Assembly: GCA_030167145.1 (NCBI GenBank)
Contig: CP126532.1
Span: forward strand, 3,780,001-3,812,000
Reading direction: 5' to 3'
Length of the DNA stretch: 32,000 bases
Source: Ktedonobacterales bacterium
GTDB taxonomy: Bacteria; Chloroflexota; Ktedonobacteria; Ktedonobacterales; JADMIN01
Part shown: one piece after another, positions 7,959 to 10,022 of the stretch
How positions within the stretch are numbered: the stretch's first letter is position 1
Layout: every line of letters starts with the position of its first letter
Made by a program: the position numbers and the translations under genes
The notes under the pieces: generated by a model
Told to the model about the DNA's origin: nothing
What the model saw: only the letters and a program-made list of their open reading frames with translations
Databases searched by the model: none

Positions 7959-10022
7959 ATGACCAGTATCTTCATCTCTTACCGCCGCGCCGACAGCGAA
8001 ACCATTGTTGGCCGCATCTATGACCACCTGAAGAATCGCTATGGCAAAGAGGCCATTTTCAAAGATGTGGACAACATTGATCCCGGTGAGGATTTCGAGC
8101 AAAAAATCCAGGCGATCATCCAGCAGTGCGCTGTGCAACTGGCCATCATCGGCCCGCGCTGGCTGGATATGCCCAGCGCGAAGACCCCAGGCCAGCGTCG
8201 TCTGGATGAACCCAAAGACCCCGTGCTGCTGGAAATCGAAGCCGCTATCAACGCGGGCATCGTCATCATTCCACTGCTGGTGGAGCGCGCCACCATGCCC
8301 GATATTGATCGCCTGCCCGATAGCATCAGTGCCCTCGCCGTCCGCAATGGCCGCCCCATCCGTAACGACCCCGACTTCGAGGACGACATCGGCAGCCTGT
8401 TCGCCGCGCTCGACCGCTACTTGCAGCATGTCCACGCGCCCGCCGATGCCACGCCCGCCACATTTGCGGGCAACCCGCAGGCGGCGCTCGTGCGCCAGAT
8501 GCTGCCCGACATGGAGCGCGCCTTTGCCGCCCACGATTGGCAGGTGCTGCTAGATAAAGCCGACTACCTCGCCCGCTATGCGCCCAACGCGCTGCCCGCC
8601 GCACGCTTCGTGACGTGGGGCAACACGCTGCTGGCGGAAAGCGACGTCTCCGGCGCGCGCATGCTGCTCGACGCCGCGCTCGGCCTGAACGCGAACGGCG
8701 TCGCCAGCCGCCCTTTCACGCCCGCTGATGTGCCCGCACTGCGGGTTGCCGCGCAGGTACACGATCAGAGCGGCGAACAGCCACTCGCCGCGACGCTACT
8801 CAAAGACGCCCTGGCCCTCGTCGCGGATTCCGACCAGCGACTCGCCATCCTGCGCGAGTATCTCCTCGTGCTGCAACAGACTGAGCAATGGAACGACCTG
8901 CTGCGCCGCACCGATGAGGCGTTGCGAATCGCGCCCGGCGACCCAACCATCGTGGCGCTGCGTGTTGATGCGCTCGCCAAATTACGGCGCACCGATGAAG
9001 CGCTCGCGTTTATTCGCGAGTTCGCCAACCGCCCCGATGCCACCACCGCCGGGCAGCTCGCCCTCGCTCGCGTCCTTGCCGAACAGAGCAACCCTGCGGA
9101 GGCGTGGACTATCTTGCAAGCCGCCATGCACAATCCCAATGCCCCGGCGAGCGTCGCCCAGGTCCGCGCCAAACTCTTCCCGCCGCCCAGCGTCGCCCCG
9201 CGATTGGCGCACCTTGGCTACACCGGCCACAATGTCGCCGGAGCGCAATTCCTCATCGCCCCGCTCTGCCAGGTGCCCGCCGGACTCTTCCGCATGGGTA
9301 GCGACCCACGCCAGGACCGCGACGCCCAGGCGAGCGAACAGCCCGATGTGCCGTTTACGACCCATCAGGACCGCGTAGCCCAGGCGAGCGCGCAACCCGC
9401 GCACGACGTGACCTTGCCCGCCTACTGGATTGGGCGCTACCCTGTCACCGTCGCCGAATACGCCTGCTTTGTCCGCTCTGGCCACACCCCTGGCGACTGG
9501 GCCAGCCAGCAGAGCAAACTCGACCATCCCGTCGTCGCCGTCTCCTGGCACGACGCCATCGCCTACGCCGCCTGGCTCGCCACACTCACTGGCCAGCCCT
9601 GGCGCCTGCCTACCGAGGCCGAATGGGAAAAAGCGGCCCGTTGGGATCCCCAGCGCCGCGCCAGCCGTCTCTATCCTTGGGGCGACACCTTCGACGAGTC
9701 CCGCGCCAACATCTACGTGGGCGGCAAGAACGGCACGACGCCGGTGGGCAGCTACCCCACCGGCGCCAGCCCCTGCGGCGCGCAGGATATGGCGGGCAAC
9801 GTCTGGGAATGGAATAGCTCGCTCTACAAACCCTACCCGTATTCTAGTACAGATGGGCGTGAGAATCCGGACAATTCCGTTGAAAATCGTGTGCTGCGCG
9901 GCGGCTCGTGGGGCGACCTCGCCCCCAAAGCGCGCGCGGCGTACCGCAACAACCTCTGGCCAGACTACGCCAACGGCTACGATGGTTTCCGCCTAGCTCT
10001 GTCTGCGGGGGCTGGTTCATAA
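7959..10022 (+). CDS. TIR domain / TPR-like helical repeat / FGE-sulfatase (SUMF1-like) domain fusion protein
   Basis: The N-terminus [48 protein letters not shown] is TIR_2-like. The middle region is Leu/Ala-rich helical repeats. The C-terminus carries [88 protein letters not shown]. ATG 7959 has a GGAGA RBS at 7950-7954, and the track start 7923 is 12 codons upstream. Confidence 0.85.
   Translation: [687 protein letters not shown]

Follow-up and report, generated by a model that had tools for sequence, protein, structure and literature searches.

Sensors of the C-type-lectin (CLec)/FGE fold that are diversified by diversity-generating retroelements (DGRs) and work with TIR, peptidase or NTPase partners are known from multicellular bacteria (Kaur 2020, PMC7159879; Doré 2024, PMC10907252), and the literature on these CLec/FGE "antigen sensor" proteins also includes Vallota-Eastman et al. 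2020 (PMC7517822). One lineage of DGR reverse transcriptases (RTs) is concentrated in multicellular bacteria, filamentous Chloroflexi included, and acts on CLec sensors that are linked with modules of the NACHT/STAND, vWA-MoxR, peptidase and TIR types (PMC10907252). Doré et al. document trans targets and call the function untested, and the proposal that multicellular bacteria possess anticipatory, hypermutating immune receptors of this kind is a genomics-based one, no such intracellular sensor having been tested experimentally (PMC10907252). The subject of the present analysis is a gene in a 32,000-nucleotide (nt) stretch of a Ktedonobacterales genome (contig CP126532.1, positions 3,780,001 to 3,812,000; the whole stretch is referred to as the window), whose 687-amino-acid (aa) product joins a TIR domain, a TPR-like solenoid and an FGE-like domain. 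This protein is a further example of the recently described class, one without an NTPase or adaptor. An earlier note on the same DNA overstated its novelty, as DGR-diversified CLec/FGE sensors with TIR domains had already been published (PMC7159879, PMC10907252); we did not find the TIR-TPR-FGE form, or any DGR of the Ktedonobacterales, described in the literature.

We propose that the gene encodes a cytoplasmic, single-chain putative receptor-effector made up of a TIR domain, a TPR-like spacer and a non-catalytic lectin tip that was written by a DGR but is not regularly rewritten now, a reading to which we give a probability of about 0.68. The gene lies in the open reading frame (ORF) 7923 to 10022 on the plus strand, the longest of its region; translation from the ATG at 7959, which has a GGAG 7-10 nt on its 5' side, gives an N-terminus that agrees with those of dozens of homologues. 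Its parts, together with the variable region (VR) that was aligned to the DGR template repeat (TR) of the locus L001 introduced below, are as follows.

7959 to 10022, plus strand: complete gene for the 687-aa TIR-TPR-FGE/CLec protein (ORF and Pfam), identical to P0001, that is OJF49_003632 of a Ktedonobacterales bacterium metagenome-assembled genome (MAG).
7968 to 8438, plus strand: SARM1-like TIR domain, aa 4-160, with an SYRR motif at aa 7-10 (Pfam TIR_2, phmmer, Foldseek and homologue alignment).
8439 to 8468, plus strand: predicted disordered linker, aa 161-170 (predicted local distance difference test, pLDDT, below 50).
8475 to 9212, plus strand: TPR-like alpha-solenoid, aa 173-418, about 12 helices (AlphaFold2 secondary structure, Foldseek and sub-cutoff Pfam TPR matches).
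9222 to 9890, plus strand: constant scaffold of FGE-sulfatase/C-type-lectin fold, including an N-terminal extension of all-beta structure at aa 422-446 (Pfam, AlphaFold2, Foldseek and paralogue alignment).
9891 to 9983, plus strand: VR body, 93 nt, 31 residues (ungapped alignment to the TR, L001 14181-14273).
9984 to 10022, plus strand: 3' end of the VR, resembling an initiation of mutagenic homing (IMH) site, with the stop codon (comparison with the TR and the cis VR).

The retroelement itself lies elsewhere in the genome, beside a paralogue, P0003 (OJF49_000910, 824 aa), which is likewise a TIR-TPR-FGE protein.

L001 10001-14310, about 1.01 Mb along the contig: complete DGR cassette in the order target (P0003), RT, Avd, TR (sequence motifs and profile search).

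Directly 3' of P0003 stands an RT with an IGNQTSQ motif, an instance of the [ILV]GxxxSQ hallmark of DGRs, and a YVDD motif; it is followed by an Avd gene (NF033474, E=5e-20, 71.7 bits, slightly under the cutoff of 80) and by an AAC-rich TR with coding potential for 36 residues. The 3' end of P0003, the cis VR, mismatches the TR at 15 of 23 adenines and at 2 of 88 other bases. This locus is a bona fide DGR. Its cassette order is unusual, the target-RT-Avd arrangement recurs in a second Ktedonobacterales MAG, and NCBI annotates the RT as a "Retron-type RNA-directed DNA polymerase". The window gene occupies contig positions 3,787,959-3,790,022, and with the DGR at about 1.00-1.03 Mb the two are some 2.77 Mb apart on the same contig in record coordinates. 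Thus, the earlier note's description of the gene as stand-alone holds for its neighbours but not for the genome as a whole, and the note overlooked that the FGE-like domain is one of the variable domains that DGRs diversify, with a paralogue that adjoins an RT, an Avd and a TR. The TPR-FGE halves of the two proteins are 72% identical and the N-terminal halves 30%; P0003 deviates at 21 of the conserved TIR columns, and by sequence the two TIR domains are of different subtypes.

The evidence that the window VR shares this history comes from its alignment with the TR, which over 9891-10019 (about 130 nt) is full-length, in frame and free of gaps. Within the VR body, differences fall on 16 of the 29 TR adenines and on 5 of the 64 other bases (Fisher p=1.5e-6), the adenines being replaced by G (8), T (5) or C (3). 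Eight of the 11 AAC codons of the TR are changed in the window copy, with the third-position C kept in 10 of the 11. In the translated sequence the residues of the scaffold (GGSW, A, ARAAYR, PD and GFRLA) are retained and every change corresponds to an adenine-containing TR codon; the VR residues of the window protein and P0003 match at 5 of 18 aligned positions, despite 88% identity (206/233 residues) between their FGE scaffolds. That 16 of the 21 differences in the VR body fall on TR adenines, and that C is retained in the AAC codons, argues for DGR mutagenesis, even if the VR is now frozen, and on this comparison the window VR was very probably written by a DGR at some time.

The alternative favoured by the earlier note is a fixed germline TIR protein that recognises one conserved ligand and owes its likeness to the TR to shared ancestry only, which departs from our preferred reading solely by denying the DGR history. 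The differences at non-adenine positions and the altered 3' end, both described below, suggest a VR that is now frozen, the TIR domain is well conserved, and five TIR-FGE homologues, several of them shorter (P0006, P0010, P0012, P0013 and P0016), have no RT nearby, all of which would suit a fixed receptor; ordinary divergence, however, would not produce the adenine-centred pattern just described, and we hold this alternative to be very unlikely.

Is the window VR still being rewritten? A trans target under active diversification, in which 9891-10019 continues to be rewritten, be it by the L001 DGR (about 1.0 Mb) or by a second one, would account for the ungapped, full-length, in-frame alignment and its strong adenine bias. 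It would also account for the two ends of the VR, the first 21 nt (5') being identical to the TR, and the 10 nt that precede the stop codon, the stop itself and 2 nt after it (GGCTGGTTCATAATG) being common to the window and the cis VR, as is the terminal GGCTGGTTCA. Where the cis VR departs from the TR, at the two positions of GCTGGT against GATGAT, it is the VR-type bases that the window carries. In addition, the cis VR (L001 12362-12472), when aligned with the TR, shows 18 gap columns (1 + 15 + 2 nt), which shift the frame across 11 codons (GSSPSSRARPTRSS) before the overall frame is restored; it is either damaged or the mis-assembled consensus of a heterogeneous, actively diversified region, and an intact VR was seen in the remote copy only. 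For related DGRs, trans targets have been reported (PMC10907252), and although the RT homologue search found one RT from the 5.07-Mb contig, it did so among the best 120 matches, so that a weaker second RT is possible. The gene would then be a functional, currently diversified receptor rewritten in trans from 2.8 Mb away after decay of the cis target.

Several observations tell against such rewriting, and some of them against our preferred reading as well. The cis VR equals the TR at each of the five non-adenine positions at which the window VR body mismatches it, and again in the IMH-like 36 nt, where the window has about 11 non-adenine mismatches to the TR (some 30%). Recent homing from the L001 TR would have erased such differences, and five non-adenine mismatches exceed the number that is usual in strict tools for finding DGRs. 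The 32-kb window contains neither an RT or Avd gene nor a TR, and its ORFs of at least 150 aa, which define the scope of all our scans of window ORFs, include no NTPase or defence gene; the 90%-identity cluster of the window protein has one member. Among 11 homologues with a VR of the same length, entropy is 2.74 bits at adenine-containing TR codons and 0.69 bits elsewhere, a result that supports a DGR history but is weak by itself, since the loop after GGSW varies in non-DGR FGE-fold proteins too. Together with two traits of the TIR head taken up below (its Leu90 and its partial ThsB-like matches), these points weigh against the proposal of a DGR-written receptor-effector. As for the timing, the five non-adenine differences and the diverged 3' end argue against present rewriting, at least by the L001 TR, which is probably not rewriting the window VR now, and the distance of some 2.77 Mb from the DGR points the same way. 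The non-adenine divergence of 7.8% equals the background between the paralogous genes (85-95% nucleotide identity), as expected if the window VR has gone un-overwritten since the paralogues diverged. We therefore consider current diversification in trans unlikely, though by no means negligible; most likely, judged from these alignments, the window gene is a remote paralogue of the DGR target, a diverged "orphan" target that was diversified in the past.

The region 3' of the gene folds no better than shuffled sequence (z=-0.42) and so gives no evidence for a DGR-type cruciform. A scan of two large DNA collections with the VR/TR core pattern returned 51 and 48 matches in FGE-domain genes of other organisms from many phyla; hence the pattern is not specific to the L001 DGR. 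In one other locus (L019, metagenome contig Ga0315281_10069714) the GSW...A..ARA core pattern occurs twice on the same strand, at 660-694 and 1116-1150, 456 nt apart, and this could be the VR/TR pair of another DGR.

The domain that carries the VR belongs to the FGE-sulfatase family beyond doubt (PF03781, aa 438-680, 173.7 bits where the cutoff is 23.3, E=7.2e-51, profile positions 7-254 of 255 matched), and Foldseek returns EgtB, ToxD, CalU17, pFGE, FGE, PvdO and TvpA as structural matches. The last of these, a DGR variable protein (2y3c), matches in fold at E=6.8e-10 with a template modelling (TM) score of 0.68 and in sequence at 5e-8. Should the domain be regarded as an enzyme of the FGE, EgtB/OvoA, PvdO or ToxD-like kind, and the whole protein as a metabolic one? 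Its best sequence matches in the PDB, ToxD (1e-33) and EgtB (1.7e-31), might be taken to say so, but the residues required for catalysis are gone. Cysteines occur only at aa 57, 437, 503 and 606, so that the copper-binding pair after GGS[YW] is absent, with no Cys beyond aa 606. In the alignment with the Streptomyces FGE the enzyme's LCHDSYCNRYR stands opposite GDLAPKAR, and thus neither catalytic cysteine is present. The DinB iron-binding domain of EgtB is missing too, just the C-terminal FGE part matching the enzyme models, and the NCBIfam equivalogs (EgtB, SenA, PvdO, GldK and OvoA) fall a long way short of their cutoff scores (111 vs 360, 83 vs 420, 75 vs 500 and 52 vs 400), reflecting a shared fold only. 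An enzymatic FGE domain was rejected on these grounds.

Furthermore, the segment that forms the active site of a true FGE is here the hypervariable, TR-templated one: the VR (aa 645-687) follows directly on GGSW and coincides with the catalytic-cysteine segment of true FGEs, as it does in TvpA, and the domain is fused to a TIR. An enzymatic role is accordingly most improbable. The sequence evidence instead supports a non-catalytic, putative ligand-binding module of the DGR-diversified kind, in line with the earlier note, which had read the missing cysteine pair as the mark of a binding module rather than an oxidase.

At the other end of the protein, the TIR domain is recognised by Pfam (TIR_2, PF13676, aa 4-123, E=5.6e-12, 46.7 bits against a gathering cutoff of 28), and in a phmmer search of PDB sequences the SARM1 TIR matches aa 3-132 (E=5e-4), with KDWVHKEIVTAL of SARM1 lying beneath the 12-residue stretch that contains Glu92. 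Counting SARM1 positions from the aligned construct, we take E92 to be the equivalent of the catalytic E642, Y8/R9/R10 of Y568/R569/R570, D36 of D594 and F46 of F603. Codons 8232-8240, in which the earlier note had located the catalytic Glu, encode E92-I93-E94, with 8232-8234 being that of Glu92. The model of the domain superposes on the human SARM1 TIR in Foldseek with TM scores of 0.86-0.89 and a root-mean-square deviation of 1.7-2.4 Å, and all top TIR matches are SARM1. When 72 homologues with a TIR are aligned by MAFFT, all 72 share E92, D36 and G43; the other Glu, E94, is found in just 52 of them. The alignments thus place the Glu where NAD+-cleaving TIRs have it, at the start of the alpha-C helix, as the earlier note had said.

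Of the 37 strongly conserved columns (at least 80%), the window TIR deviates at three, and a single change is non-conservative: Leu90 (8226-8228), two residues N-terminal of Glu92, occupies a position where 66 of 71 homologues have Arg. The change is unique, and SARM1 carries His at the equivalent position. From its sequence the domain looks maintained and catalytically equipped, and may well be an NADase. The same SARM1-like head is found elsewhere joined to WD40, TPR, PD40/TolB, solute-binding and NTPase modules, which fits an effector head with interchangeable sensors.

Many bacterial TIR domains make signalling nucleotides, and the window TIR could on that account, instead of killing the cell, be a signal generator, producing cyclic ADP-ribose isomers in the manner of ThsB, or a non-enzymatic scaffold, with a separate effector encoded elsewhere. 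The Leu90 change so near the catalytic Glu would be compatible with this, as would the weak, partial ThsB-like matches reported by PADLOC (ThsB model, aa 4-69, 8e-7) and a weak match to ThcB4 over aa 4-69. Against it stand three findings: a ThsA-like, SLOG, SIR2 or macro-domain partner was not found among the window ORFs; the nearest TIRs of solved structure are without exception SARM1, which consumes NAD+ directly; and the Glu is invariant among homologues that carry many types of sensor, as would suit an effector complete in itself. A TIR that signals or scaffolds therefore appears distinctly unlikely to us, and a direct NAD+-consuming effector remains part of the reading we prefer. Membership of Thoeris or CBASS was considered and rejected, PADLOC having given weak partial matches to ThsB and to SAVED-TIR models only.

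Between the head and the tail, the TPR-like character of the middle part is clear in the structure model alone. The Pfam TPR models all fall below their gathering cutoffs (TPR_14 21.8 vs 23.5; TPR_15 19.5 vs 26.2), whereas TIR_2 and FGE-sulfatase exceed theirs. The AlphaFold model predicts about 12 paired helices (helical hairpins) over aa 173-418, for which Foldseek finds consensus-TPR (CTPR), PilF and KLC1 TPR structures at E of about 1e-5. The AlphaFold2 model of the whole protein, built with 86 homologues as input (mean pLDDT 90.2, predicted TM score 0.63), lays out the TIR at aa 1-160, the linker at 161-170, the helices at 173-418 and a four-strand beta extension at 422-446 ahead of the FGE/C-type-lectin fold, and in Foldseek searches against the PDB each of the three parts was matched separately. 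Pfam, the model and Foldseek thus confirm the TIR and FGE-like parts that the earlier note had described, and the model and Foldseek point to TPR-like repeats between them. Pfam shows no NTPase domain in the 687 residues. Transmembrane segments were not predicted in the protein either, which suggests a cytoplasmic location; an exported or transmembrane topology was rejected, the strongest hydropathy window being the beta-D strand of the TIR domain.

Given such a layout, what might the protein do? In the mechanism that we propose, the last 30 or so codons of the FGE domain would have been written by adenine-specific mutagenic retrohoming from the TR, and the variable lectin face would bind a cognate non-self ligand, be it a phage or other protein or a glycan. 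Binding could then relieve a TPR-mediated restraint or drive oligomerisation, such that TIR domains assemble into an active composite NADase site. With NAD+ depleted, the infected cell would arrest or die, and its death or arrest would protect clonal neighbours in the filament, the Ktedonobacterales being filamentous, mycelial organisms. This mechanism builds on what was observed: which domains are present, where the Glu lies, that the FGE cysteines are lost, that the genome has a DGR, and that the relation of VR to TR is adenine-biased; from them we infer NADase activity, ligand-triggered activation and a role in defence. The sensor-scaffold-effector logic of the earlier note is supported to that extent, with ligand-triggered activation as its conjectural step.

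The genomic setting is that of an isolated gene among housekeeping functions. The neighbours are lexA, dedA, DUF2330, pheT, hom, pheS, an MFS transporter and spoU, with eda, degV, fakA, rlmN and fmt further out; neither a MoxR-vWA pair nor a STAND NTPase is present in the protein or among lexA, dedA, DUF2330, pheT, hom and pheS. The gene is divergent from the DUF2330 gene and convergent with pheT, the order that the earlier note had given. Three related Ktedonobacterales contigs, whose PheT proteins are 72-73% identical, retain rpmI-rplT-spoU-pheS-hom-pheT, but 3' of pheT they carry a nucleotidyltransferase, a glyoxal-oxidase-like protein or transposases, and neither the window gene nor DUF2330 stands at that position in any of the three. 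Synteny thus breaks at the gene, which is lineage-specific, and this bears out the variable context that had been suspected. Full-length relatives are few, with identities of 38-54% that vary with the search; of 174,155 FGE-domain matches, the top 150 include about four 50%-identity clusters that cover residues 1-682.

Two further features belong to the gene and its upstream flank.

9348 to 9401, plus strand: 18-aa insertion in the FGE domain (imperfect tandem duplication, missing from all aligned homologues).
7893 to 7910, no strand assigned: GCAGACA-N4-TGTCTGC hairpin in the upstream intergenic region (copy of a dispersed repeat, not shown as part of the gene).

The insertion arises within duplication units at 9309-9398, in which aa 451-462 resemble aa 469-480 (54-nt, imperfect, 29 of 36 nt matching); it was spotted by eye, Tandem Repeats Finder not reporting an internal duplication of the FGE domain, and is modelled poorly (pLDDT below 50 at aa 476-478). 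The hairpin recurs at window 11195-11212 and at L001 14877-14892 and 19054-19069, whereas 108 loci from other organisms lack it. The earlier note had placed copies of this CAGACA/TGTCTG repeat on both intergenic flanks, which is correct upstream and incorrect downstream, where the hairpins are different ones; an insertion signature built on them was rejected, as the repeat is one-sided and dispersed elsewhere in the genome. One copy, which has 1 mismatch, forms an in-frame part of pheT and falls in a lineage-variable loop (AGQTAMSAPLSVGQTFLSV).

Scans for promoters and terminators, Rfam families and tRNAs found nothing. A homoserine-dehydrogenase gene (hom, 12846-13946) sits between pheS and pheT, an order kept in the three related Ktedonobacterales contigs (L108, L109 and L110). 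In window 1-2700, where the G+C content resembles that of coding sequence, there is no ORF of at least 150 aa lying wholly inside the window, no Rfam match and no tRNA, ORFs that cross the left edge being unlisted. The ORFs 3597-4808 (403 aa), 19653-20954 (433 aa) and 22139-22774 (211 aa) have no Pfam match.

What makes the window protein of wider interest is that it approaches the simplest form of its class, with a variable lectin face, a TPR spacer and a SARM1-like TIR in 687 residues, and no NTPase, adaptor or partners. This minimal one-chain form makes it a tractable construct for asking whether binding by a DGR-written surface can switch on a TIR NADase, and what is recognised. Were it being diversified in trans at present, it would be a minimal, single-chain "anticipatory" immune receptor without an NTPase switch. 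The pair of paralogues, one adjoining the DGR with a scrambled VR and the other remote with an intact, drifting VR, is in addition a natural example of the evolution of DGR targets, showing how they duplicate, swap effector heads and leave the reach of the retroelement.

How, then, does the protein compare with the systems it most resembles? With FGE (SUMF1) and EgtB/OvoA it shares the Pfam family PF03781 and the fold; unlike them it has no catalytic Cys pair or DinB iron site, and the VR replaces the active-site segment. With ThsB of Thoeris and the single-gene antiphage TIRs it has in common a TIR with a conserved Glu and a presumed abortive-infection logic, but it lacks a ThsA partner, its ThsB match is limited to aa 4-69, and its gene is outside a defence island. 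Its tail is built like TvpA of Treponema denticola (2y3c) and Mtd of the Bordetella phage, the variable residues following GGSW at the C-terminal end, although TvpA is a lipoprotein and Mtd a phage tail-fibre protein, with no effector domain, and the window protein is by prediction cytoplasmic and has a TIR.

The closest solved TIR, in both sequence and fold, is that of human SARM1, with the equivalents of the catalytic Glu, SYRR, D594 and F603 all kept. SARM1 has an ARM-SAM-TIR architecture; the window protein reverses that order by starting with the TIR, lacks SAM domains for oligomerisation, and has a TPR-like solenoid, not an ARM one, and a lectin-fold sensor in place of an NMN/NAD-binding ARM domain. 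Both proteins nevertheless carry an alpha-solenoid in the TIR chain, and this analogy suggests an autoinhibition like that of SARM1.

The nearest relatives in overall design are the DGR-diversified CLec/FGE sensors with which we began. The window protein differs from them in having no STAND/NACHT NTPase, vWA-MoxR pair or adaptor (EAD/Trypco) and no nearby partners, and in being a copy remote from the DGR whose VR has drifted from the TR. It shares with them a C-terminal FGE/CLec domain ending in a VR, other domains that are all N-terminal, a TIR effector, a filamentous multicellular host, an RT, an Avd and an AAC-rich TR in the genome, and targets that lie at a distance from the retroelement.

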